From an uncultured bacterium (GTDB taxonomy: Bacteria; Krumholzibacteriota; Krumholzibacteriia; JACNKJ01), in assembly GCA_963695095.1 (NCBI GenBank), contig CAVOFT010000001.1, forward strand, positions 1,824,001 to 1,888,000: 64,000 nt of DNA. The letters are read 5' to 3'. Below the pieces are notes generated by a model. The model worked only from the letters and a program-made list of their open reading frames with translations, ran no database searches and was not told where the DNA came from. The position numbers and the translations under genes were made by a program. Shown one piece after another: positions 11,956-41,162 of the stretch; the first letter of the stretch is position 1; the number at the start of each line of letters is the position of its first letter.

Positions 11956-13191
11956 ATGTCCGCAGCGACCCCGCCGCTCATCCTGTTCGAAGCAGCCGGC
12001 ATCGAGGCCTTCGGCCCGCCCGTTGCCCTCAGGCCCGTCTGGGAGCTGCGCCTCGGCGCGCGCACACTCGCCGAGCGCTGCGCGGCGATCTGGCCGGCGG
12101 GGGCGCTCTACTACTGGCCGCGGCCGCGCTTGCGCGGCCTCTGTCCCGAAGCGCCCGCTGCTGTCTTCGCGGCGCCGCGCGTCCTGCTCCTCGCCGGCAA
12201 TCAGATGATGACCGCTCCGGAGGCGGCCAGCCTGCTCGCCGGCTTGGGGCCGGGCGAGAGCCTGCGCGCGGGGGAGCGCGAGGTCGCGCTCTGCCTCAGC
12301 GGCGCCGAGGCCAGGGAGTGGCTCGGCGCTCTCGCCGATGGGGCGGCCGTCTGGCCGGCGCCCGCCGCCGAGCCGCGGGAGAGCGCCCTGGGTCCGCTCG
12401 TCGACTACTGGTGGGAGCTCTATGCCCTCGCGCCGCGCGCGATGGCCGACGACCAGATCTCGCTGCTGGCTGCGGGCGACTGGCAGCGGTGCGCGGCTTC
12501 CGGCGGGGGCGAGTGCTATCTGGCCCCGGGCGCCGAGCTGGGCCCCGGGGCCGTCATCGATGCCGGCGCCGGCCCCGTGCTCCTGGATCGCGACGTGAAG
12601 GTGGGCGCGCTCAGCGTCGTGGCGGGCCCCTGCTACCTGGGCCCCGGCACGCGGACGAAGCCGCACACGCAGCTGCACGGCGTCTTTGCCGGCCCCCAGT
12701 GCCGGCTGGGCGGCGAGGTCGAGGAGACGCAGCTGCAGGGCTACGCCAACAAGCAGCACCACGGCTTCCTCGGCCACGCCGTGGTCGGCGAATGGGTGAA
12801 CCTGGGCGCCGGGGCCACGAACAGCGATCTAAAGAACAACTACTCCGGCGTGCGCGTGGAGCAGGGCGGCCGCCGGCTGGAGAGCCAGCAGCGCTTCCTC
12901 GGCAGCTGCCTGGGCGATCACGTGAAGATCGGGATCCAGGCGCGGCTGAGCACGGGCACCGTGCTCGAGCCCTTCACCAACTGGTTCGGCGGCGACTTCC
13001 CGCCCAAGGGGCTGCCGCCCTTCAGCTGGGGCGGCGACGGCCTGCTCGTGGAGCACGCGCTCGACAAGGCCCTGGCCACGGCGGCCATCGCCATGGGCCG
13101 GCGGGGCGTGGAATTGAGCCCGGCCGCCGCGGCCGTGGCGCAGTCGCTCTTCGCGGCCAGCGCCCCCTGGCGGCGCGAGCGCCTCGGCTGA
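11956..13191 (+). CDS. Putative sugar-phosphate nucleotidyl/acetyltransferase (Bacteroidota-type alternative GlmU family) with hexapeptide repeats
   Basis: AAGGAGG RBS; N-terminal RPVWELRLGARTLAE; GGEVEE...YANKQHHGFLGHAVVGEWVNLGAGATNSDLKNNY; left-handed beta-helix repeats. Confidence 0.85.
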   Translation: MSAATPPLILFEAAGIEAFGPPVALRPVWELRLGARTLAERCAAIWPAGALYYWPRPRLRGLCPEAPAAVFAAPRVLLLAGNQMMTAPEAASLLAGLGPGESLRAGEREVALCLSGAEAREWLGALADGAAVWPAPAAEPRESALGPLVDYWWELYALAPRAMADDQISLLAAGDWQRCAASGGGECYLAPGAELGPGAVIDAGAGPVLLDRDVKVGALSVVAGPCYLGPGTRTKPHTQLHGVFAGPQCRLGGEVEETQLQGYANKQHHGFLGHAVVGEWVNLGAGATNSDLKNNYSGVRVEQGGRRLESQQRFLGSCLGDHVKIGIQARLSTGTVLEPFTNWFGGDFPPKGLPPFSWGGDGLLVEHALDKALATAAIAMGRRGVELSPAAAAVAQSLFAASAPWRRERLG

Positions 13192-13292
13192 GGAGCCGGC
13201 GGCAAGCTCTGCGCAGCCCCGTCGCAAAATGCCAGACCCCGGTGGATGCGCGCCGGCGCCGGGCGCCGCGCGCCAGCGCGGCGCTCCGGCTT

Positions 13293-13317
13293 CAAGTCCA
13301 TTGTCGATAAGAGCTTG
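13293..13317. promoter_or_regulatory. 25-bp IHF-like site (copy 2 of 5)
   Basis: CAAGTCCATTGTCGATAAGAGCTTG, about 50 nt upstream of a sigma54-like promoter. Confidence 0.45.
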
Positions 13318-13366
13318 CTTCGCCCGGGCAGGGACTGGGCGCCGCCGGCCGGGGACGGGTCCGCCC

Positions 13367-13382
13367 TGGCCCTGGATTTGAT
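13367..13382 (+). promoter_or_regulatory. sigma54-like promoter (TTGAT -12 variant) of the candidate sRNA
   Basis: TGGCCC-TGGAT-TTGAT; same spacing and same -12 variant as the flgF and fliP promoters. Confidence 0.5.
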
Positions 13383-13392
13383 AAGACGCCTG

Positions 13393-13500
13393 CGAACGCA
13401 TTGCCCTGCCCAGTGCGAGAAAGCCAGACCGGGGGCCCAATCTCACTTCTCGTGTGCTGCGCTTCTCCGTGTTTGGTGCTACGCCGTGGGCGGGGTTTTT
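13393..13500 (+). ncRNA. Candidate sigma54-dependent trans-acting sRNA (~108 nt)
   Basis: No credible coding ORF. Bounded by a sigma54-like promoter and a hairpin plus T-tract (13478-13500). 5' hairpin CGCATTG/CAGTGCG. Seed TGCTGCGCTTCTCC is complementary to flagellar RBSs. Confidence 0.5.
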
Positions 13501-13545
13501 CATTGCCGGCGGCCTGGCGCCGGCTTTTCTCATTCCGCTTAGGGT

Positions 13546-13574
13546 TTGACAAACGCAAGTCCGGCTGATACCTT
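13546..13574 (+). promoter_or_regulatory. sigma70-type promoter of the HU/IHF-bS22-rnr region
   Basis: TTGACA-N17-TACCTT with an extended TG. Confidence 0.7.
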
Positions 13575-13649
13575 GGGTTGCGTCTTTCGGATGGAGGGGC
13601 CCAACGCGGTGAGACCGCCGCGGCCACGGGTGCCTCGAGAAGGGGGAGC

Positions 13650-13952
13650 ATGACCAAGGCCGACCTCGTGGAGGAAATCTCCGCTCGCGTCAATCTGAGT
13701 AAGAAAGACACCGGGATCGTGGTCAACCTGGTCCTCGACAACATCAGTATGGCGCTCTCGCGCGGAGACAAAGTGGAATTACGCGGCTTCGGCAGTTTCC
13801 GGGTGAAGCAGCGCCGCAGCCGGCGCGCCCGCAATCCGCGCACCGGCACCTCCGTCTCCGTGCCCGCCAAACTCGTGCCCTTCTTCAAGGCCTCCAACGA
13901 GTTGAAGACCCTCGTCAACGGCGACGACGCGGGCGCCGGGGGCGCCAACTAG
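13650..13952 (+). CDS. HU/IHF-family DNA-binding protein (IHF-beta-like)
   Basis: MTKADLVEEI...GDKVELRGFGSF...ARNPRTG...VPFFKASNELK; GGGGAG RBS. Confidence 0.95.
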   Translation: MTKADLVEEISARVNLSKKDTGIVVNLVLDNISMALSRGDKVELRGFGSFRVKQRRSRRARNPRTGTSVSVPAKLVPFFKASNELKTLVNGDDAGAGGAN

Positions 13953-14052
13953 GCTCCAGCCCCTCACATCCGCATCGATCGGGACTCATCGCATTTCCGG
14001 GAACGCTCCTCCGGTTGGAGGACGATCTCTGCTCAAGAGAGGTAGCCACGCC

Positions 14053-14142
14053 ATGCCCAACGGCAGGAAGCGCAAGCGCAAGAAGATCGCCACGCACAAG
14101 CGCAAGAAGCGCATGCGCAAGGACCGGCACAAGAAGAAGTAA
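14053..14142 (+). CDS. 29-aa basic ribosomal protein bS22 (AURKAIP1/COX24 domain family)
   Basis: MPNGRKRKRKKIATHKRKKRMRKDRHKKK after a GAGAGGT RBS; below the ORF-track size cutoff. Confidence 0.9.
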   Translation: MPNGRKRKRKKIATHKRKKRMRKDRHKKK

Positions 14143-14150
14143 GTCAGCTC

Positions 14151-16028
14151 GTGGGTGACTGGACCCGCGCCTTCCTCGCGTTGCTGCAGCGGCATCCGGG
14201 CGGGCTGACCTTGCGGCGCGCAGCCCGCCTCCTCGGCATACCCCGGGAGGACTATCGCCATTTCAGGCGCGAAGTGCTGCTCGTGCTGCGCACTGACCGC
14301 GTCCACCGCGTGCGCGGCCGTTTCCTGCTGCCCGGCACTGTCGGTGCCGGCAGCCCCCGCCCAGCCAGGCCGCTAGCGCCGCCGCCGGTGCTGCCGACGG
14401 CCTTCCGGCCCGCCAGCGTCGAAAGCGAGCGGGCGCAGGCAATGGCGGCGCTGCTTGCCGAGCACGGTCTCGAGCCGCGCTTCCCGCCGGCAGCCCTCGG
14501 CGAAGCCGAGGGGCAGGCGGCGGCCCAGCCCGCGGCAGCCGCCCATCGTCGAGATCTCGGCGGCCTGTGCATCCTGTGCATCGATCCAGCGGATGCGCGG
14601 GACCACGACGATGCCATCAGCCTGGAGCCCGGCGAGCGCGGCGGCTGGCGGCTCGGCGTGCACATCGCCGACGTCGCCGCCTTCGTGCCGGAAGATGGCG
14701 AGCTCGACCGCGAGGCCAGGCGCCGCGGCAATTCCACCTATTTCTACCTCGACACCGTGCCCATGCTGCCGCGAGCGCTGTCGGCGGAAGCCTGTTCGCT
14801 GCTGCCCGGCCAGGATCGCGCGGCGCTGTCGGTCTTCATCGAGTTCGACGCGGCTGTCCAGCCGCTCAGCGTGGAGCTCGTGGAGAGCCGCCTGCGCGTG
14901 AGCCACAGCCTGAGCTACGAAGAGGCGGAGGCCGCTCTCGCCGGCGAATCAGGGGACGAGCCCGCGCGCAGCCTGCAGGCGATGCAGGCGCTGGCCGAGC
15001 GGCTGGCGGCGGAGCGAGCCGCTGCGGGGGCGCTGCAATTCGAGCTGCCCGAGATCCGGCCCGTGGACGAGGGGGAGGGCGTTCAGGCTTTTCGGCCCGC
15101 GCCCGTCCTGCGCAGCCACCACATCGTCGAGGAGTTCATGCTGGCGGCCAACCACGCCGTGGGTCGCCTGCTGCGCGAGCGGGGGCGACCGGCGCTGTAT
15201 CGCATTCACCCGCCGCCGGCCGACGAGGATCTCGCCGAGCTGCTGCTCGCGCTCCGGCGCCGGCGCGTGAACTGGCGCCCGTCGCCCCAGCCGCGCAGCG
15301 CGGACTTCCAGCGTCTGGCGGCCCTGCTCGCGGAGCGACCGGATCGCGAGCTCCTGCTGATGAAACTGCTGCGCGCCCTGGCGAAGGCGGTCTACAGCGT
15401 GCATGACGAGGGGCACTTCGGCCTGGCCTGGTGGGACTATCTCCACTTCACCAGCCCGATCCGCCGCTACGCGGATCTCTGGGTGCACCGGGAGCTGAAA
15501 GACCTGCTCCAGGCGGAACAGGCGCGTGCGGCCGGCGAGCAGCGCTGGCTCCGCCACCGCTTCGCCGAGCTGCCCCGCCGCCCGCGTGCGGCGGCCCTGC
15601 GCCCCCAGCGCCGGCGCGCCCTGGAGGCCCTGGCGCGGGAGATCAGCGACTGCGAGGTCAACTCGCTCAAGGCCGAGCGGGCCGGCCTGCGCCTGGAGAT
15701 GATCCTCTGGGCGCGCCAGCGGCTGGGCGAGCGCTTCACCGCCGATCTGGTGGCGGTCTTTCCGACGGGGATCCTGCTCCGCCTGCCGGATTCCGGGGTG
15801 GAGGGCTTCCTGCCCGCCCAGTTCCTGGGCCGCGAGTACTTCGTCTACCACGAAGAGCGCGAGGAACTGCGGGGGGAGCGCAGCGGGCGCCTCTTTGCCG
15901 CCGGCCAGACCCTGGCCGTGCGGCTGGTGGACGCCAACCTCTTCTCGCGCCGGCTGCAGTTTTTGCTTGAGGATGAGCTGGAGGCAGACGACACTGAGAA
16001 AGCAGCGGGCAAGTCCCGAAGGAGTTGA
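14151..16028 (+). CDS. rnr: RNase R / RNB-family 3'-5' exoribonuclease (short N-terminus)
   Basis: IDPADARDHDDAIS catalytic motif, VHIADV, IVEEFMLAAN, HFTSPIRRYADL, C-terminal S1-like domain. Confidence 0.9.
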   Translation: MGDWTRAFLALLQRHPGGLTLRRAARLLGIPREDYRHFRREVLLVLRTDRVHRVRGRFLLPGTVGAGSPRPARPLAPPPVLPTAFRPASVESERAQAMAALLAEHGLEPRFPPAALGEAEGQAAAQPAAAAHRRDLGGLCILCIDPADARDHDDAISLEPGERGGWRLGVHIADVAAFVPEDGELDREARRRGNSTYFYLDTVPMLPRALSAEACSLLPGQDRAALSVFIEFDAAVQPLSVELVESRLRVSHSLSYEEAEAALAGESGDEPARSLQAMQALAERLAAERAAAGALQFELPEIRPVDEGEGVQAFRPAPVLRSHHIVEEFMLAANHAVGRLLRERGRPALYRIHPPPADEDLAELLLALRRRRVNWRPSPQPRSADFQRLAALLAERPDRELLLMKLLRALAKAVYSVHDEGHFGLAWWDYLHFTSPIRRYADLWVHRELKDLLQAEQARAAGEQRWLRHRFAELPRRPRAAALRPQRRRALEALAREISDCEVNSLKAERAGLRLEMILWARQRLGERFTADLVAVFPTGILLRLPDSGVEGFLPAQFLGREYFVYHEEREELRGERSGRLFAAGQTLAVRLVDANLFSRRLQFLLEDELEADDTEKAAGKSRRS

Positions 16029-19440: not shown

Positions 19441-19507
19441 GTGCCACTGCCGGACGCTGCCCGACGCCCGGGAGAAGCGGCGGTCGCGTCCAGGGAGAAG
19501 CGGTTCC

Positions 19508-20230
19508 ATGATCAAGGCGCTCGCGAGCAGCGGGCAGGCGATGCAGGTCCAGCAGCGCCGCCACGAGCTGATCGCCAATAATCTCGCCAACGCCAACACG
19601 CCCGGCTTCCAGAAGCTGGTCAGTCGCGTCGAGCTGGGCGCGCCCAGCGGGGTCGGCCCGGCGGCGGCGACGAAGGGCCGCGCCCTCAGCGTCGGCATCT
19701 TCACCTCGACGGCGCAGGGGCCGCTCGAAAGCACCGGCAATCCCCTGGATGTCGCGCTGATGGGGGAGGGCTACTTCCTCATCGAGACGCCGGACGGGCC
19801 GCGCTTGAGCCGCGACGGCGCCTTCTCATTGAGCGCCGAAGGCGAGCTGCTGCATGGCTCCGGCTATCCGGTCCTGGCCGATGGCAGCGCCCTGCGCATC
19901 GAGGGCATCCCCAGCATCCTGCCCGACGGCACCGTCATGGACGGCAGCCGCGCCAGCGGCCGCCTCAGCGTCGTACGCCCGGTGGCCGGCACGGCGCTCT
20001 TGCGCCAGGGCGACAACCTGCTCGAGGCCCCGGGCGGCGTCGAGGAGGTGCCCGGCGAAGAGGTCACGGTGCAGGCGGGCCGCCGCGAGGGCTCGAATGT
20101 CGAACCGATCGAGGAGATGGTGGCGATGATCCGCGCCTTCCGCAGCTACGAGATGGCGCAGAAGGCGGCCCAGGCCGCAGACGACTTGCTGCGCGTGGCC
20201 GTCGAGCGGGTCGGGGTGCTGCGCGCCTAG
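19508..20230 (+). CDS. flgF: Flagellar proximal rod protein FlgF
   Basis: IANNLANANTPGF, TGNPLDVAL, EGSNVEPIEEMV; lies just upstream of flgG. Confidence 0.85.
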   Translation: MIKALASSGQAMQVQQRRHELIANNLANANTPGFQKLVSRVELGAPSGVGPAAATKGRALSVGIFTSTAQGPLESTGNPLDVALMGEGYFLIETPDGPRLSRDGAFSLSAEGELLHGSGYPVLADGSALRIEGIPSILPDGTVMDGSRASGRLSVVRPVAGTALLRQGDNLLEAPGGVEEVPGEEVTVQAGRREGSNVEPIEEMVAMIRAFRSYEMAQKAAQAADDLLRVAVERVGVLRA

Positions 20231-20309
20231 GTCCGCGAGCGGCGCGTGAAGCGCCGATCGGCCACCGCCAAACCGGGCGCCGCGGCGCTCAGAGCAGGGA
20301 GAAGCAACC

Positions 20310-27610: not shown

Positions 27611-28117
27611 ATGCGCTTGTTCGGAACCCGTTTCGGAACTGTCGATTACGCGGAGCAGGATGTGCTCCAGCTCAGCGAGGGCCTGGTGGGCCTGCCCCAG
27701 CTCGAGCGCTTCCTGATCATGGAGTTCGCGGAGCAGGCGCCCTTCCGCTGGCTGCAGTCCCTGGACGACCCGGCGATCGGCTTTCTGATCGCCGACCCCG
27801 TGCTCTTCGATTCCAGTTTCAACCTGGCCCTCGATGAACACGATCTGCGCGGCCTCGATGTCAGCGCGCCCGAGGACTTGACGATCTTCGTGCTCTGCAC
27901 GCGGCGCGGGCCCTGGGCGGCGACGACCGGCAACCTGCTGGGGCCGATCATCGTGCATACGAGCGCCCGGCGCGGCCGCCAGATCATCGTCGAAGACGCC
28001 GGCTACTCCACGCATGCCCCGCTGCGCAAGGCGCTGCGTGTGCCCGGCGCGGACCGGCAGCGCGCTGCCGGCGCCGGCGCCGGCGCCGAGGACGGCGTGC
28101 GCGAGAGCAGCGGCTAG
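27611..28117 (+). CDS. fliW: Flagellin/CsrA partner-switching protein FliW
   Basis: TRFG, GLVG, FRWLQSLDDPAIGF, TGNLLGPIIV, GRQII. Confidence 0.93.
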   Translation: MRLFGTRFGTVDYAEQDVLQLSEGLVGLPQLERFLIMEFAEQAPFRWLQSLDDPAIGFLIADPVLFDSSFNLALDEHDLRGLDVSAPEDLTIFVLCTRRGPWAATTGNLLGPIIVHTSARRGRQIIVEDAGYSTHAPLRKALRVPGADRQRAAGAGAGAEDGVRESSG

Positions 28118-28138: not shown

Positions 28139-28408
28139 GTGCTGGTACTCAGTCGGAAGCGTGACCAGAGCATCATCGTGGGGGATGCGATCAAGATCAC
28201 GGTCGTCGACGTGCGCGGCGACACCGTGCAACTCGGGATCGAGGCCCCGCGCGAGATCGGCATCTATCGGGAAGAGATCTATCACGCCATTCGCGAGGCG
28301 AATCGGGAAGCCATCGATCGCGAAGGCGGCAATGGCGACGCGGCTCGCGGCGCCGGCGAACGGCCCGACCCCGGCCATGGGCACCGCGATGCCGGGGATG
28401 GCCGGTAG
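28139..28408 (+). CDS. csrA: Translational regulator CsrA (FliW-associated type with C-terminal extension)
   Basis: MLVLSRKRDQSIIVGD...LGIEAPREIGIYREEIY...EANREA; GTG start after AAGGAG. Confidence 0.96.
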   Translation: MLVLSRKRDQSIIVGDAIKITVVDVRGDTVQLGIEAPREIGIYREEIYHAIREANREAIDREGGNGDAARGAGERPDPGHGHRDAGDGR

Positions 28409-28471: not shown

Positions 28472-28498
28472 TCAAGTGCTACCGCGTGATGCCGATGA
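28472..28498 (+). promoter_or_regulatory. sigma28 promoter of flagellin 1
   Basis: TCAAG-N14-GCCGATGA. Confidence 0.8.
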
Positions 28499-28621
28499 AC
28501 GGAGCGGACGGCCATCTACGGCCGCAAACAAGAGCGAATGGGATCGCGATCCGCGACGAGGGAGCGGGGCGGATCCAAGACGTAGACGCCGCCAACGGCG
28601 AAGATGCAAGGAGAAGCAGCA

Positions 28622-30291: not shown

Positions 30292-30307
30292 TGGCACCAG
30301 CTCTGCG
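30292..30307 (+). promoter_or_regulatory. sigma54 promoter of flagellin 2
   Basis: TGGCAC-CAGCT-CTGCG (GG-N10-GC). Confidence 0.7.
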
Positions 30308-30367
30308 AAGGGGGGAGAGCTCATGTTCCGGCGGCGTTTCGGACGGGCGGCGACCTGACCGCCAGAC

Positions 30368-30395
30368 GGAACCACGGAGGTTCCCCTGCGGGGGA
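30368..30395 (+). promoter_or_regulatory. CsrA-binding hairpin(s) in the flagellin 2 leader
   Basis: GGAACC-ACGGA-GGTTCC (ANGGA loop), overlapping TCCCC-TGCG-GGGGA; conserved in the flagellin 3 leader. Confidence 0.7.
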
Positions 30396-30415
30396 GTTCA
30401 AGGAGGATCGCAGCA

Positions 30416-32171: not shown

Positions 32172-32187
32172 TGGCATCGGCCCTGCG
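32172..32187 (+). promoter_or_regulatory. sigma54 promoter of flagellin 3
   Basis: TGGCAT-CGGCC-CTGCG; lies at almost the same distance from the ATG as in flagellin 2. Confidence 0.7.
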
Positions 32188-32247
32188 ATGTGCCGGCGCG
32201 TGACCTCCCGGCGAAGGCTCGGGGAGGTGACAACCCGGATGCAAGAC

Positions 32248-32275
32248 GGGACCACGGAGGATCCCCTGTAGGGGA
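32248..32275 (+). promoter_or_regulatory. CsrA-binding hairpin(s) in the flagellin 3 leader
   Basis: GGGACC-ACGGA-GGATCC overlapping TCCCC-TGTA-GGGGA. Confidence 0.6.
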
Positions 32276-32294
32276 CGTCAAGGAGGATCGCTGA

Positions 32295-37183: not shown

Positions 37184-37558
37184 ATGGTGGAGATCGGCAA
37201 GTCCGCAGCCGTTCACGGTCAGGAATTGGCCAAGCTCTACGGGCAGCGCGCCGAATCGGAGGGCGCCCCGGAGGTCTCGGACCAGCAAGCCACGCAGAAT
37301 CGCCCGGTAGGGACGGGCGAGGGCAGGGCCGCCGTCATGGTGCAAATCAGCCCCGAGGCGCGCGATCGGGCCGAGCGCGAAGAAGCGCTCGCCGCCGCCA
37401 AGGCCGTCTACCCGGATCTGCCACCCATCCGGGCCGATGTCGTGGAGGCCGTCCGCCAGCGCCTGGAGGCGGGTTTCTACGAGACCCCGGCTGTCAAGGA
37501 TGCGCTCGTCGAGCGCCTCCTGCCCCTGGCCCGCCGTCTGGAGGCTGGCTCCCGCTAG
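37184..37558 (+). CDS. flgM: Anti-sigma28 factor FlgM
   Basis: VQISPEAR...PPIRADVVEAVRQRLEAGFY; GGAGGA RBS. Confidence 0.8.
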   Translation: MVEIGKSAAVHGQELAKLYGQRAESEGAPEVSDQQATQNRPVGTGEGRAAVMVQISPEARDRAEREEALAAAKAVYPDLPPIRADVVEAVRQRLEAGFYETPAVKDALVERLLPLARRLEAGSR

Positions 37559-37704: not shown

Positions 37705-39789
37705 GTGCAGCAGGCGGCCCAATCGCGGATTCTCCGCGTGATCTCCGAGACGGCGTTGAGCGGGGCATCCCTGGGCATCCCGGCTGCGCCGGACGGGTGG
37801 CGGGTGGAGTTCGAGCAGCTTGCGGATGCCGAGCTCGAGCGGGAAGCCCCCGACCTGCTCCTCCTCGCTCTGCCGCCGGAGAGCCCCGGCCTGAGCGTCT
37901 GGCTGGGCCGCTTCCGCCTCCTCAATCCCCAGTGCCAGGTTCTGCTCGCCGAAGGCGCCGAGGATGCCATCTGGTACCGAGCGGCCATCGCCCTGGGTGT
38001 GGACGGCCTGCTGCCCTCGCCGATGGCGCCGGCCGACTGGCTGCACACCCTGGCGGCCAGCGCCGAGGCCCTCGGCGCGGCCGACGCCCAGCGGCGCGTC
38101 GTCGGCGATCTGGAGCGCAGCTCCCAGTCCCTGGCCGAGAGCCGGCGCCAGCTGGCGGGGCTCCTGCTCCAATCCTACGAGCAGCTGGGCCGCGTCCATC
38201 GGGAGCTGGAGCGGCGCCTCGAGCAGCTGTCCGTGCTCTATCGCCTCGGCCGGGATCTCGGGCGGGAGCAGAACTGGGATCGCGCCCTCGATGAGTTTCT
38301 GAAGTCATGTGTTGATAGCCTTGGATTCAAAGGCGTTGCGCTACTGCTTTGGAGCTTCGATTCGCGGCGCTTGGCCGTCCGCGCCGAGCTGGCCCTGGCC
38401 GGCGACAGCCTCCTCGGCGCCCTGCGCCGCCTCAGCGCGCTCTCCGGCGAGCGGCTCGGCGGGGCCGGAGTGCTCGGGCTCGCCGTGGACCGGGAGCTGT
38501 TGCTGGGGGAGGCCCTGCGCGGGCGCATCGCCGAGGCCGAGTTGCTGGCGCTGCCCCTGGCGATGGGCGAGGAGGCAGAGGGCTTCCTCGTCTTTCGCAA
38601 GCCCTACCCGACGGCCGCCGAGCTCGATGCCGACTTCCACTTCTTGAAGACCGTGCAGACCCTGCTGGGCGAGGCGATCGGCGGCGCGAAGGCGATGCAT
38701 CGGCTCAAGCGCCTGGACGCCTTCAATCGCAGCGTGCTGGAAAGCGTGCACGCGGCCGTCCTCACGGTGGATGGCGAGGGCCTGGTCAGCTACCGCAACC
38801 CGCGGGCGGCCGCCCTCTTCGGCGCGCGGCTCGTGCCGGGCGCGCCCTTCGCCTTCGACAGCGGCTTCCACCTCCTGGACGCGGAGCCGGGCGAGGGCTC
38901 GGGCCTGGGAGAACAGGACTGGATCCAGCGCGACTGCCGGCTGAGCGGTGCCGGGGAGCCCGAGCGGCGGCTCCTGCTGTCGGTCACCTGCCTGACGCCG
39001 CGCCACGCGAGCGAAGTGCGGCACGTGCTCGTCTGCGAGGACCTCACCGACTACAAGCGACTGGAAGCCGAACTCCGCCAGGCCGAGCGCCTGAGCAGCC
39101 TGGGCCAGCTCTCGGCGGGCATGGCCCACGAGATCCGCAATCCGCTGGCCGGGATCGCGATGACCGCCCAGGTCCTCAAGTCGCGCCTGGGCGAGCGCCC
39201 GGACGCGGATCCCTACCTCGAGCGCATCCAGGCCGAGATCCAGCGCCTGGAGCGCATCGTGCGCAGCCTGCTCGAGTTCAGCCGACCGGCGCGGCCGCGG
39301 CTGGCGCCTCTGGACCTGGCGGCCACTGCCCGTCGCGTGCTGGAGGACCTGGCCGGTCAGGCGGCGGCGGCGGGCATCGAACTCGTCCCACCGGATGCCG
39401 CGGCGCCCGGGCCGGCTCTCGCCGACGGCGATCAGATCCACCAGGTGCTGCTGAATCTGGTCCAGAACGCCCTGCAGGCCTGCCGGGCCGGCGATCGCGT
39501 GGGGATCGCCCTGGAGCGCGCGGCGGCCGTCGGCGGCGCGGATCGCCTGCACCTGCGCGTCTGGGACAGCGGGCCCGGGGTGGCGGAGGCGGCCCGGAGC
39601 CGCCTCTTCGAGCCCTTCTTCACGACGAAGGCGGAGGGCACGGGCCTCGGCCTGGCCGTCTGCCGGCAGATTCTCGAGGAGCATGGCGGGCGCATCGAGT
39701 ATCGCCCGCGCCCCATGGGCGGAGCCGAGTTCTGCCTCCAACTCAGTCCGATCCCCGATCCACCCCGCAGCGAGGAGACGTCAGCGTGA
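37705..39789 (+). CDS. Cytoplasmic multi-domain sensor histidine kinase (degenerate REC-like, coiled coil, GAF-like, PAS-like, HisKA, HATPase)
   Basis: AGMAHEIRNPL, QVLLNLVQNA, DSGPG, FEPFFTTK, GTGLGL. No obvious TM segment. Start codon uncertain. Confidence 0.9.
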   Translation: MQQAAQSRILRVISETALSGASLGIPAAPDGWRVEFEQLADAELEREAPDLLLLALPPESPGLSVWLGRFRLLNPQCQVLLAEGAEDAIWYRAAIALGVDGLLPSPMAPADWLHTLAASAEALGAADAQRRVVGDLERSSQSLAESRRQLAGLLLQSYEQLGRVHRELERRLEQLSVLYRLGRDLGREQNWDRALDEFLKSCVDSLGFKGVALLLWSFDSRRLAVRAELALAGDSLLGALRRLSALSGERLGGAGVLGLAVDRELLLGEALRGRIAEAELLALPLAMGEEAEGFLVFRKPYPTAAELDADFHFLKTVQTLLGEAIGGAKAMHRLKRLDAFNRSVLESVHAAVLTVDGEGLVSYRNPRAAALFGARLVPGAPFAFDSGFHLLDAEPGEGSGLGEQDWIQRDCRLSGAGEPERRLLLSVTCLTPRHASEVRHVLVCEDLTDYKRLEAELRQAERLSSLGQLSAGMAHEIRNPLAGIAMTAQVLKSRLGERPDADPYLERIQAEIQRLERIVRSLLEFSRPARPRLAPLDLAATARRVLEDLAGQAAAAGIELVPPDAAAPGPALADGDQIHQVLLNLVQNALQACRAGDRVGIALERAAAVGGADRLHLRVWDSGPGVAEAARSRLFEPFFTTKAEGTGLGLAVCRQILEEHGGRIEYRPRPMGGAEFCLQLSPIPDPPRSEETSA

Positions 39790-41162
39790 ACCACTCGATC
39801 CTCATCGTCGACGACGAGCAGACCCTGCGCTGGTCCCTGGGCGAGGCCCTGCGCGATACCTACCGCGTCCTGGAGGCCGAGGACGGCCCCAGCGGCCTGG
39901 CGCGCCTGCGCGAGGAGGAACCCGATCTGGTGCTCCTGGACGGTCGTCTGCCGGGCCTGGCCGGCATCGACCTGCTCGAGCAAGCCCGCAGCGAGGGCTA
40001 CGAGGGCCAGGTGATCATGATGACGGCCTACGGCGAGCTCGAGACGGCCGTGCGGGCCATGAAGCTCGGGGCCTACGACTTCGTCAGCAAGCCCTTCTCC
40101 CTCGAGAAGATGAAGAAGAGCATCGAGAACGCCCTCGAAGCCAAGCAGCTCCGGCGCGCCAACCAGCACTGGGAGGAGACCCAGCGCAAGGGCGATCCCT
40201 TCATCGGCTTCGTGGGCAAGAGCCCGCGCATGCAGGAGCTCTTCGAGAAGATCCGCAAGATCGGCGCCAGCCAGGCCTCGACGGTGCTCATCCAGGGCGA
40301 GAGCGGGGCGGGCAAGGAGCTGGTGGCGCGGGCCATCCATCGGGCGACCCTCGGCGTCAGCGGCCCGGTGGTGGAGATCAACTGCGCGGCGATCCCGGAG
40401 ACCCTGCTCGAGAGCGAGCTGTTCGGCCACGAGAAGGGGGCTTTCACCGATGCCAAGAACCGGAAGAAGGGCCTCATCGAAGCGGCGATGGGCGGCACGC
40501 TCTTTCTCGACGAGATCGGCGAGATGGGGCTGCAACTGCAGGCGCGCCTGCTGCGCGTGCTCGAGAACCGCACCTTTCGCCGCGTCGGCGGTCTCGAGGA
40601 CCTGCAGGTGAAGGCGCGCATCGTGGCCGCCACCAACAAGGATCTCATGCAGGAGGCGGCCGCCGGCCGCTTCCGCAGCGATCTCTACTTCCGCCTCGGC
40701 GTCATCGTGCTCGAGGTGCCGCCGCTGCGGGAGCGGCCGGAGGATATCGCGCCCTTGGTGAACTTCTTCATCGAGCGTTTCAACCGCGAGCTGGGCAAGA
40801 GCGTGGCGCCGGCGAGCCCCGAGCTGCTTGCCGAACTTGCGGCGTACTCCTGGCCGGGCAACATCCGCGAGCTGAAGAATCTCATCGAGCGCGTGCTGCT
40901 GCTGGAGACGACAGGCGCCATTCGCAGCGAACATCTGCCGGCCGGCTTCAGGCGGTCCGGTGAAGTCGCGCTCGCTCCGGGAGCGCCCTTCCATCCCGAG
41001 CCGATCGCCGCCGTAGAGCTGCGCCACATCCAGCGCACGCTCGAGTACACGCAGGGCAACAAGAGCCGTGCGGCGCAGCTGCTCGGGATCAGCCGCCAGA
41101 CCCTGCGCGAGAAGCTCAAGCAAGGGGCGCCGGCTGCCAAGGCGGCCAGCGCCGCTGGCTGA
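39786..41162 (+). CDS. sigma54-dependent response regulator (REC-AAA+-HTH; NtrC/AtoC family)
   Basis: IVDDE, LLDGRLP, GESGAGKE, ELFGHEKGAFTDA, WPGNIREL, Fis-type HTH; GTG 39786 overlaps the kinase stop. Confidence 0.95.
   Translation: MNHSILIVDDEQTLRWSLGEALRDTYRVLEAEDGPSGLARLREEEPDLVLLDGRLPGLAGIDLLEQARSEGYEGQVIMMTAYGELETAVRAMKLGAYDFVSKPFSLEKMKKSIENALEAKQLRRANQHWEETQRKGDPFIGFVGKSPRMQELFEKIRKIGASQASTVLIQGESGAGKELVARAIHRATLGVSGPVVEINCAAIPETLLESELFGHEKGAFTDAKNRKKGLIEAAMGGTLFLDEIGEMGLQLQARLLRVLENRTFRRVGGLEDLQVKARIVAATNKDLMQEAAAGRFRSDLYFRLGVIVLEVPPLRERPEDIAPLVNFFIERFNRELGKSVAPASPELLAELAAYSWPGNIRELKNLIERVLLLETTGAIRSEHLPAGFRRSGEVALAPGAPFHPEPIAAVELRHIQRTLEYTQGNKSRAAQLLGISRQTLREKLKQGAPAAKAASAAG

Follow-up and report, generated by a model that had tools for sequence, protein, structure and literature searches.

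A predicted small RNA gene with a sigma-54-type promoter, conserved beside the HU gene in Krumholzibacteriota

Introduction

What occupies the long gap between a GlmU-like gene and the gene for an HU-family DNA-binding protein in an uncultured member of the Krumholzibacteriia? The gap lies in a 64,000-nucleotide (nt) stretch of genomic DNA (the window; assembly GCA_963695095.1, contig CAVOFT010000001.1, positions 1,824,001 to 1,888,000), for which a preliminary description, made from the letters alone, had proposed a sigma-54-dependent small RNA (sRNA) that pairs with the ribosome-binding sites (RBSs) of flagellar genes. Comparison with relatives indicates that the gap unit is not a product of chance; it is, as far as conservation and covariation can tell, a real and previously undescribed structured RNA gene, ancestral to this uncultured phylum and kept with or without flagella. 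The proposed pairing with flagellar genes, a neat match between seed and RBS in one GC-rich genome, did not survive a check against RNA structure, genomic background and relatives.

Hardly anything is known of regulatory RNAs in uncultured phyla, and a full-text literature search for Krumholzibacteriota together with small RNA returned only work on CsrA. The element described here is a phylum-wide, single-copy structured RNA whose promoter is among the best conserved of its sigma-54 type in these genomes. It is a candidate new family for Rfam within the known class of sigma-54-dependent sRNAs. Tied to the gene of the main nucleoid protein and to a sensor kinase/regulator pair, it offers a handle on sigma-54 signalling in the group.

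Results

The gap holds one long, covarying hairpin

Genomes and loci are given G- and L-numbers below, G000 being the genome that carries the window, and families of the class are numbered f1 to f9. Genes of G000 were called for this analysis (3181 genes, 89% of the genome covered). Features of the locus are as follows (window positions).

13191 to 13650: gap of 458 nt between the end of the GlmU-like gene (13191) and the start of the HU-family gene (13650)
13291..13317, + strand: AT-rich patch, about 50-77 nt 5' of the -24 GG, called an "IHF-like 25-mer" in the preliminary description
13367..13382, + strand: sigma-54-type -24/-12 promoter TGGCCC-TGGAT-TTGAT, read directly
13393..13500, + strand: predicted small RNA of about 108 nt, with a short 5' tail, a long irregular hairpin and a U-run
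13403..13496, + strand: long hairpin of about 94 nt, whose basal helix (13403-13412/13487-13496) would serve also as the terminator stem
13429..13462, + strand: apical region with the strongest sequence conservation (CCGGGGGCCCAAUCUCAC...GUGUGCUGCGC)
13455..13468, + strand: tract TGCTGCGCTTCTCC, previously proposed as the seed; its 3' half, CUUCUCC, pairs with GGGGG (13431-13435) as the 3' side of a stem
13496-13500, + strand: T-run (U-run of the RNA) after the hairpin
13505..13528, + strand: second intrinsic-terminator-like hairpin (13505-13524) and T-run, specific to G000 and not conserved in sequence
13546..13576, + strand: the HU gene's own promoter block (TTGACA, 17 nt, TACCTTGG)
13650..13952, + strand: HU/IHF-family DNA-binding protein gene (Pfam Bac_DNA_binding, E = 4.4e-30)

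Every string named in the preliminary description is present where it had been placed, and the gap indeed lacks a credible open reading frame (ORF), the sole candidate being a 31-codon GTG frame that reads through the terminator. The fold, in contrast, had been misread. A separate 5' hairpin (13397-13417) and a local terminator hairpin (13478-13500) had been proposed; they are opposite sides of one stem, and the conserved fold consists of one long hairpin in which, in G000, 13403-13412 pairs with 13487-13496. The minimum free energy of 13393-13535 is -64.3 kcal/mol (z = -3.08).

Covariation argues for this fold. Across 14 homologous sequences, 93.1% of alignment cells at paired positions can pair and 12 of 33 pairs are altered on both sides, a level reached in 0 of 500 shuffles, whereas slid controls give 36-51%. 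With 30 sequences the paired fraction is 85.9%, and 107 compensatory cells are found versus 45.6 in shuffles; slid controls over both alignments range from 29 to 51%, and all these figures come from alignments fitted to a covariance model, which favours structure. The same helices were obtained from an RNAalifold consensus on a plain MAFFT alignment. The apical third is nearly invariant within f1, and GGCCCA.UCC and UGC are kept, or nearly so, across the 30 sequences from three families. Opening 13436-13455 costs 4.2-4.7 kcal/mol and opening UGCUGCGC costs 2.5, against 10.7 for 13461-13468. The C/U-rich part of the apical region is thus partly unpaired, and we regard it as the candidate functional site.

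As the preliminary description had suspected, the RNA has no prior family. A search of the whole window against Rfam at gathering scores returned nothing besides two tRNAs; over 13150-13700 no family reached its gathering threshold and the best match had only E = 1. The RNA homologues at seven further loci gave no Rfam match either.

The RNA is spread over the phylum, with or without flagella

In a BLAST comparison with 40 relatives, two genomes of the same genus align from 13366 onward, precisely at the promoter, and the core 13398-13500 aligned in 10 of the family's 11 other genomes. Ten sequences were used for a covariance model, which found one copy in each of the 12 f1 genomes. A second model, with two divergent members among its sequences, was applied to 151 genomes of the class; it was positive in f1 (12/12), f5 (19/23) and f8 (12/13) and gave no match in f2 (0/43), f4 (0/35), f6 (0/10), f7 (0/7) or f9 (0/1). 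Two weak matches appeared among the seven f3 genomes; the one in G033 was taken as false, since it lies inside an ffh-like coding sequence, and the other is in G038. A draw of genomes at phylum level gave the same picture.

Five model-negative genomes were inspected upstream of HU. Judged by eye and fold, f2 (two genomes), f4 and f7 (one each) have a sigma-54-like promoter, a hairpin of 100-120 nt with the same base of the CCCUGC/GCGGGG type, and a U-run; the f6 genome had no such element. Absence from the model search is therefore not absence of the element. The apical loops of these diverged forms (L091-L094) are C/U-rich: CUCUCCG in G080, CAUCCUCAC in G019 and AAUCCACAA in G044. A scan of named genomes for the exact core gave 99 matches; among the 80 listed, 6 are true homologues by the model, one of them in a record titled Candidatus Krumholzibacteriota, and the rest are chance.

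Distribution of the RNA does not follow that of the rod protein FlgG. FlgG was found in only 2 of 23 f5 genomes and 1 of 13 f8 genomes, so that over both families the RNA is present in 31 of 36 and FlgG in 3 of 36. G025 and G057, near-complete genomes on one contig each, carry the RNA and have no FlgG match, and FlgG is found in 42 of the 43 f2 genomes, all of them negative by the model. Retention of the RNA where FlgG was not found, together with the failed pairing tests described below, leads us to conclude that its core function is not flagellar.

Promoter, upstream region and boundaries

The pattern GGC[AC][CT]-N5-TTG[AT][AT] stands 13-28 nt 5' of the hairpin in 30 of 30 loci, where chance would give 0.0007 occurrences per 70 nt in G000. 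No locus departs from the GG or the spacing, TGGC/GGGC/CGGC and TTG are conserved, and the -12 element reads TTGAT at 27 loci and TTGTT at three, its dinucleotide thus being GA or GT, not GC. Sigma-54 promoters are recognized by GG at -24 and GC at -12, spaced as TGGCAC-N5-TTGCW. Conservation in relatives, which the preliminary description had left to be checked, holds for the promoter pattern at these 30 loci, and the unusual TTGAT that it had noted recurs at the flgF (19425) and fliP (59083) promoters; canonical TTGCA promoters are likewise present in G000. The gene of the factor itself, rpoN (PF04552), was found in five of five genomes tested, four of them without flagella, and matches to the sigma-54 activator domain (PF00158) number 20 in G000, 14 in G025 and 18 in G057.

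Upstream, the claimed IHF site fared unevenly. Its fit to the consensus has one mismatch and is at chance level (12 consensus matches in the window versus 8.96 expected, with the E. coli consensus), and BLAST of relatives showed that the 25-mer is not conserved in sequence within the genus. The AT-rich patch as such does recur: a 20-nt window with an AT fraction of at least 0.65 lies between -95 and -15 in 20 of 30 loci, compared with 4 of 30 in the control interval -255..-175, and the patch of G000 begins at -77. It may be a site for a DNA-bending protein or for an activator.

At the 3' side, 28 of 30 loci have five or more U among the 9 nt that follow the hairpin. Second hairpins comparable to 13505-13524 follow in only some relatives, G002 and G008 among them. 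The HU gene has its own promoter, as the preliminary description had it: 29 of 30 loci have a TTGACA block 35-120 nt 3' of the RNA, ahead of the next gene, and in f1 the block is conserved as TTGACAAA-N13-GATAxCTTGG. Its downstream element resembles the TAnnTTTG -7 motif of Bacteroidota promoters. The block is not listed by a strict sigma-70 scan.

A proposed mode of action and a candidate activator

We consider it somewhat better than even (about 55%) that this is an independent sRNA gene of the sigma-54 type acting in trans through the apical C/U-rich region 13436-13462, and not through the CUUCUCC tract. The promoter at 13367-13382 would start a transcript near 13393, a 5' end placed by promoter geometry; the transcript would fold into one long irregular hairpin, whose base and U-run would form an intrinsic terminator near 13500. 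The conserved and partly exposed C/U-rich apex would then be the site of action, and the promoter would be activated by a histidine kinase/sigma-54 response regulator pair. On the unit itself the preliminary description holds up, the self-contained, sRNA-like unit with its sigma-54-type promoter being found at 30 of 30 loci with a covarying hairpin.

The candidate activator is encoded in the window:

37705-39789, + strand: histidine kinase (Pfam)
39786-41162, + strand: sigma-54 response regulator (Pfam)

Gene order points to this pair. The RNA is single-copy and lies between the GlmU-like and HU genes; 29 of 30 loci have HU 3' of the RNA and on its strand. Genomes of f1 show the GlmU-like gene, RNA, HU, a basic ORF of 31 codons, a gene with an RNB domain, PilZ, HDOD, SpoIIE and STAS, and after these the flagellar block, which runs from flgF (19508) to flgM (37184-37558); then come the kinase and regulator (37705-41162), beyond which lie a second kinase-regulator pair and more flagellar genes. 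G025 (f5) and G057 (f8), which are non-flagellate, have the GlmU-like gene, RNA, SppA (f8 only), HU and PilZ, followed directly by the orthologous kinase and regulator, the latter 58% identical to the regulator at 39786-41162 over its full length; in G079 (f5) the regulator alone was matched (56% identical), without the kinase. Since the RNA and the kinase/regulator genes flank the flagellar block and both survive without it, the pair is the best candidate activator, by analogy with glmY and GlrK/GlrR, and may drive the RNA promoter. No motif common to the upstream regions backs this link, and the genomes encode 14-20 sigma-54 activators.

Comparison of 16032-41162 with L197-L199 shows that the flagellar block and the RNB, HDOD, SpoIIE and STAS genes lie between PilZ and the kinase/regulator pair; non-flagellate families have the two flanks side by side, which looks like loss or gain of the whole block in one piece. 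In f5 (L197:6249, L199:6372) a sigma-54-like promoter, GGCAC-N5-TTGCG/TTGCC, lies at the start of a gene of about 290 codons directly after the sigma-54 regulator. This gene is without a G000 homologue and may be a second target of the regulator.

Target searches were made in G000 with an accessibility-aware score over the 3181 start regions. The best predictions pair the apical region with RBSs of the GAGGAG type. No 11-mer complementary to 13429-13472 lies within 40 nt 5' of a called start anywhere in the genome, and no conserved target was found for this accessible and conserved region. Two candidates suggested by the neighbourhood were rejected: the HU mRNA ranks 2737 of 3181, and glmS, considered because of the GlmU-like neighbour and the analogy with GlmY, ranks 269. 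The glmS gene of G000 (C1:1471106-1472930, L200) matches in three pieces in different frames, one of them with an in-frame TGA, which reflects either assembly frameshifts or a broken gene.

Several observations weigh against a trans-acting sRNA of the sigma-54 type. The -12 element, TTGAT, departs from canonical TTGC, and the 30 upstream regions have no k-mer or inverted repeat in common, only GC-rich low-complexity words. Two of the 30 loci have fewer than five U in the 9 nt after the hairpin, and in about six loci outside f1 (L080, L081, L086-L089) the U-run is, by eye, interrupted; there the RNA might act as a leader. Pairing between the two best-conserved segments shows no covariation, a pattern that would suit a protein-binding helix as well. 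The top 30 predicted targets in G000 are functionally mixed and show no theme (among them, judged by their N-termini, ribosomal protein L20, RibBA-like, two NuoE-like and MurI-like proteins, a sigma factor, RpoA, a HypC-like protein and FliG). Finally, contigs from four metatranscriptomes, searched over 12900-14200, cover 13600-13951 (the HU gene) and 14047-14200 (the small ORF after it) and nothing of 13393-13500, although such contigs and size selection lose small RNAs and say nothing on an RNA of 108 nt.

Flagellar leaders and CsrA

The preliminary description had drawn attention to strings in flagellar leaders that are complementary to the tract, and these exist: GGAGAAGCG at 19471-19479 and 19494-19502 (flgF), GGAGAAGC at 20298-20305 (flgG) and GGAGAAGCAGCA at 28610-28621 (flagellin 1). 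GGAGAAGC is over-represented in the window (13 occurrences versus 3.98 expected), is present at the flgF RBS in 12 of 12 genomes and at the flagellin-1-type RBS in 8 of 9, and is exact at flgG in 5 of 12, with near variants elsewhere. The following features bear on what these leaders may do.

19446..19510, + strand: flgF leader, a hairpin with GGGAGA in its loop, then the Shine-Dalgarno sequence GGGAGAAGC
27611-28117, + strand: fliW (Pfam FliW, 5.9e-29)
28139..28408, + strand: csrA (Pfam CsrA, 8.9e-24); fliW and csrA lie directly 5' of flagellin 1

CsrA offers a better reading of the conserved GGAGAAGC leaders than sRNA pairing does; it accounts for the target side alone, and we hold it as a tentative proposal. 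CsrA would bind the GGA in the loop of the flgF hairpin and the GGA in the Shine-Dalgarno sequence, and would treat the flagellin-1 leader likewise, with FliW as its antagonist. CsrA typically binds hairpin loops that contain GGA, in one description (PMC13443453). The flgF leaders of 10 of the 12 genomes form a hairpin whose stem covaries and which carries GGGAGA in or at its loop; some 20 nt further on comes the Shine-Dalgarno sequence GGGAGAAGC, so that a GGA in a loop and a GGA over the Shine-Dalgarno sequence occur together where csrA is present; the exceptions are G003, with GUGGAGC at that place, and G005, whose flgF leader is short. The position of fliW and csrA immediately upstream of flagellin 1 fits, and in 5 of 9 flagellin-1 leaders GCUU...AAGC can, by hand, close a short hairpin around AAGGAG. 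On the other side, GGA is inherent in any GGAG Shine-Dalgarno sequence, and CsrA leaves the AAGC extension at flgF and flgG unexplained. We know of no description of rod genes as CsrA targets; the flgF leaders (L036-L047) look like CsrA control extending to a rod gene. The conserved leaders would then point to another layer of flagellar control, CsrA-FliW acting on rod genes.

Two classes of flagellin gene are kept across genera (28480-28621, 30300-30415, 32180-32294; L048-L069). One class combines a sigma-28-like promoter (..GCCGATGA..) with a hairpin in the leader and the RBS AAGGAGAAGC; the other flagellins have sigma-54-like promoters, TGGCAC-N5-CTGCG, and the extended Shine-Dalgarno sequence AAGGAGGATYGC.

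Other readings of the RNA

The RNA could instead be a leader acting in cis, the sigma-54 promoter being a second, conditional promoter of HU (and of sppA in f8) and the hairpin a regulated terminator, with HU levels governed by read-through. The constant order RNA then HU on one strand (29 of 30 loci), the lack of any gene between the two in f1 and f5, and the loci with short or interrupted U-runs described above all fit an attenuator. We nevertheless consider it unlikely. The U-run is substantial at 28 of 30 loci, and the downstream gene has a separate, conserved promoter block at 29 of 30. Tandem second terminators in G000, G002 and G008 speak for insulation, no alternative antiterminator fold was found, and the HU metatranscriptome contig starts at 13600, a weak hint in the same direction.

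Alternatively, the invariant helix GGCCCA/UGC..GC and the UUCC loop might form a protein site, making the RNA a decoy for, or partner of, HU or another RNA-binding protein. E. coli HU binds structured RNA. Strict linkage to the HU gene would suit such a role, as would the pattern of substitution, both strands of helix 4 being invariant without covariation while the outer helices covary freely, and the lack of a coherent set of predicted targets. Yet the RNA has no GGA motifs and so is no CsrA sponge, its single hairpin offers one site where known sponges have several, and nothing ties it to one specific protein. We judge this role improbable.

A broader version of the sRNA proposal would make the RNA the output of the kinase/regulator pair within a module of RNA, HU-PilZ and kinase-regulator that outlasted flagellar loss; in flagellates it would also couple the sensor to translation of the rod and sigma-28 flagellin genes through the GGAGAAGC leaders, possibly in competition with CsrA. 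Taken as a whole, this scheme strikes us as decidedly improbable, although a secondary flagellar role of the RNA in f1 could still exist.

Least credible among the RNA-based accounts is the original one, in which pairing of the tract TGCTGCGCTTCTCC with the flgF, flgG and flagellin-1 RBSs would adjust rod synthesis and the choice of flagellin. Besides the complementarity in G000, some observations do speak for it. In 10 of 12 f1 genomes the RNA lies 6-7 kb 5' of flgF on the same contig (different contigs in G001 and G011), and the -12 TTGAT is common to the RNA and flgF promoters. In G001 the flgF leader is perfectly complementary over 13 nt (-30.9 kcal/mol, top 0.0%), and G007 flgF and G003 flgG reach percentiles of 1.2% and 1.1%. 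The motif count, suggested earlier as a check, gave a divided answer. GGAGAAGC occurs at -25..-1 of 16 of the 3181 called genes in G000 and is enriched at flagellar RBSs (3/44 versus 13/3137 genes), with a p of 0.0012 that is post hoc because the motif was picked from these same genes; 13 of the 16 carriers are nevertheless non-flagellar.

Against it stand the structure, the variability and the ranking of the tract. CUUCUCC is paired inside a covarying stem and is the segment that costs 10.7 kcal/mol to open (13461-13468). Seed conservation, expected by the preliminary description, was not found: f1 genomes carry CUUCUCC (2 genomes), CUUUUCC (4), CUUUCUC (1) or CUUUCCC (5), all of which keep C or U opposite G in the stem as G-C or G-U pairs, and in f8 the tract is GUUCGACG, which is not pyrimidine-rich and preserves the stem through a compensatory U-A pair. 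Meanwhile the flgF RBS GGGAGAAGC is identical in 12 of 12 genomes, and the variant yields, as read by hand, an A-C mismatch in the middle of the duplex in 6 of 12. Drift of the tract against a fixed flgF target is not the behaviour expected of a seed selected for that target.

Nor do the flagellar leaders come out on top in G000: by the accessibility-aware score flagellin 1 ranks 803, flgF 1874 and flgG 2099 of 3181. By hybridisation alone flgF lies at the 5.6th, flagellin 1 at the 9.7th and flgG at the 11.1th percentile, and flagellin 2, which was supposed to escape, pairs better than all three claimed targets (-22.7 kcal/mol, 3.0th percentile). In relatives, each tract was compared with its own leaders, using G000 start regions as an approximate background; in 8 of 11 all tested leaders fall between the 8th and 99th percentile, and in G002, G008, G005, G004, G009, G010 and G011 between the 25th and 99th. 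The RNA is also retained in 19 of 23 f5 and 12 of 13 f8 genomes, families in which FlgG was found in 3 of 36, and GGAGAAGC is present at 13 non-flagellar RBSs. The tract is buried, variable and poorly ranked, and we find its role as an anti-RBS seed highly improbable. A coding reading of the region was dropped, since indels between families are not in threes and the 31-codon GTG frame crosses the terminator.

Relation to known RNAs

Stand-alone sRNA genes with a -24/-12 promoter, an intrinsic terminator and an enhancer-binding protein are familiar from Qrr, CrcZ, NrsZ and RNAs of the Pxr type. None of these was matched in Rfam at E <= 10 over 13150-13700; they belong to other phyla, have other folds and act on known targets. 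The C/U-rich loops of RepG in Helicobacter and of the UCCC-motif sRNAs in Staphylococcus pair with G-rich leaders. The apical region here is likewise C/U-rich (CCCAWUCYCAC) and is predicted to pair with RBSs of the GAGGAG type, but there is no homology, and its apical loop sequence varies between families.

GlmY works by protein sequestration. Like GlmY/GlmZ of Enterobacteriaceae, the RNA described here has a sigma-54-type promoter, an AT-rich patch at the usual position of a bend and a syntenic histidine kinase/sigma-54 regulator pair. Unlike them, it shows no sequence or Rfam relation, forms one long hairpin, and is linked to its putative activator by synteny only, no regulator sites having been found. 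According to one account of E. coli (PMC3045617), the sigma-54 promoter of glmY needs the response regulator GlrR, whose kinase is GlrK, and the upstream IHF sites are required.

The precedent invoked by the preliminary description was CJnc230 (FlmE) of Campylobacter jejuni, an RpoN-dependent sRNA that is reported to repress flgM and a flagella-interaction regulator (PMC11187230). CJnc230, as that report presents it, is processed from the flgE mRNA, whereas the RNA here has its own promoter and terminator; CJnc230 is tied to the flagellar hierarchy, while the RNA here persists without FlgG, its claimed flagellar targets are unsupported, and the two show no homology.

A small ORF after the HU gene

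The 31-codon, very basic ORF that follows the HU gene in the f1 order (MPNGRKRKRKK..., 14054-14149) has no Pfam match. It shows the deepest metatranscriptome contig cover of the stretch examined (up to 25.6).

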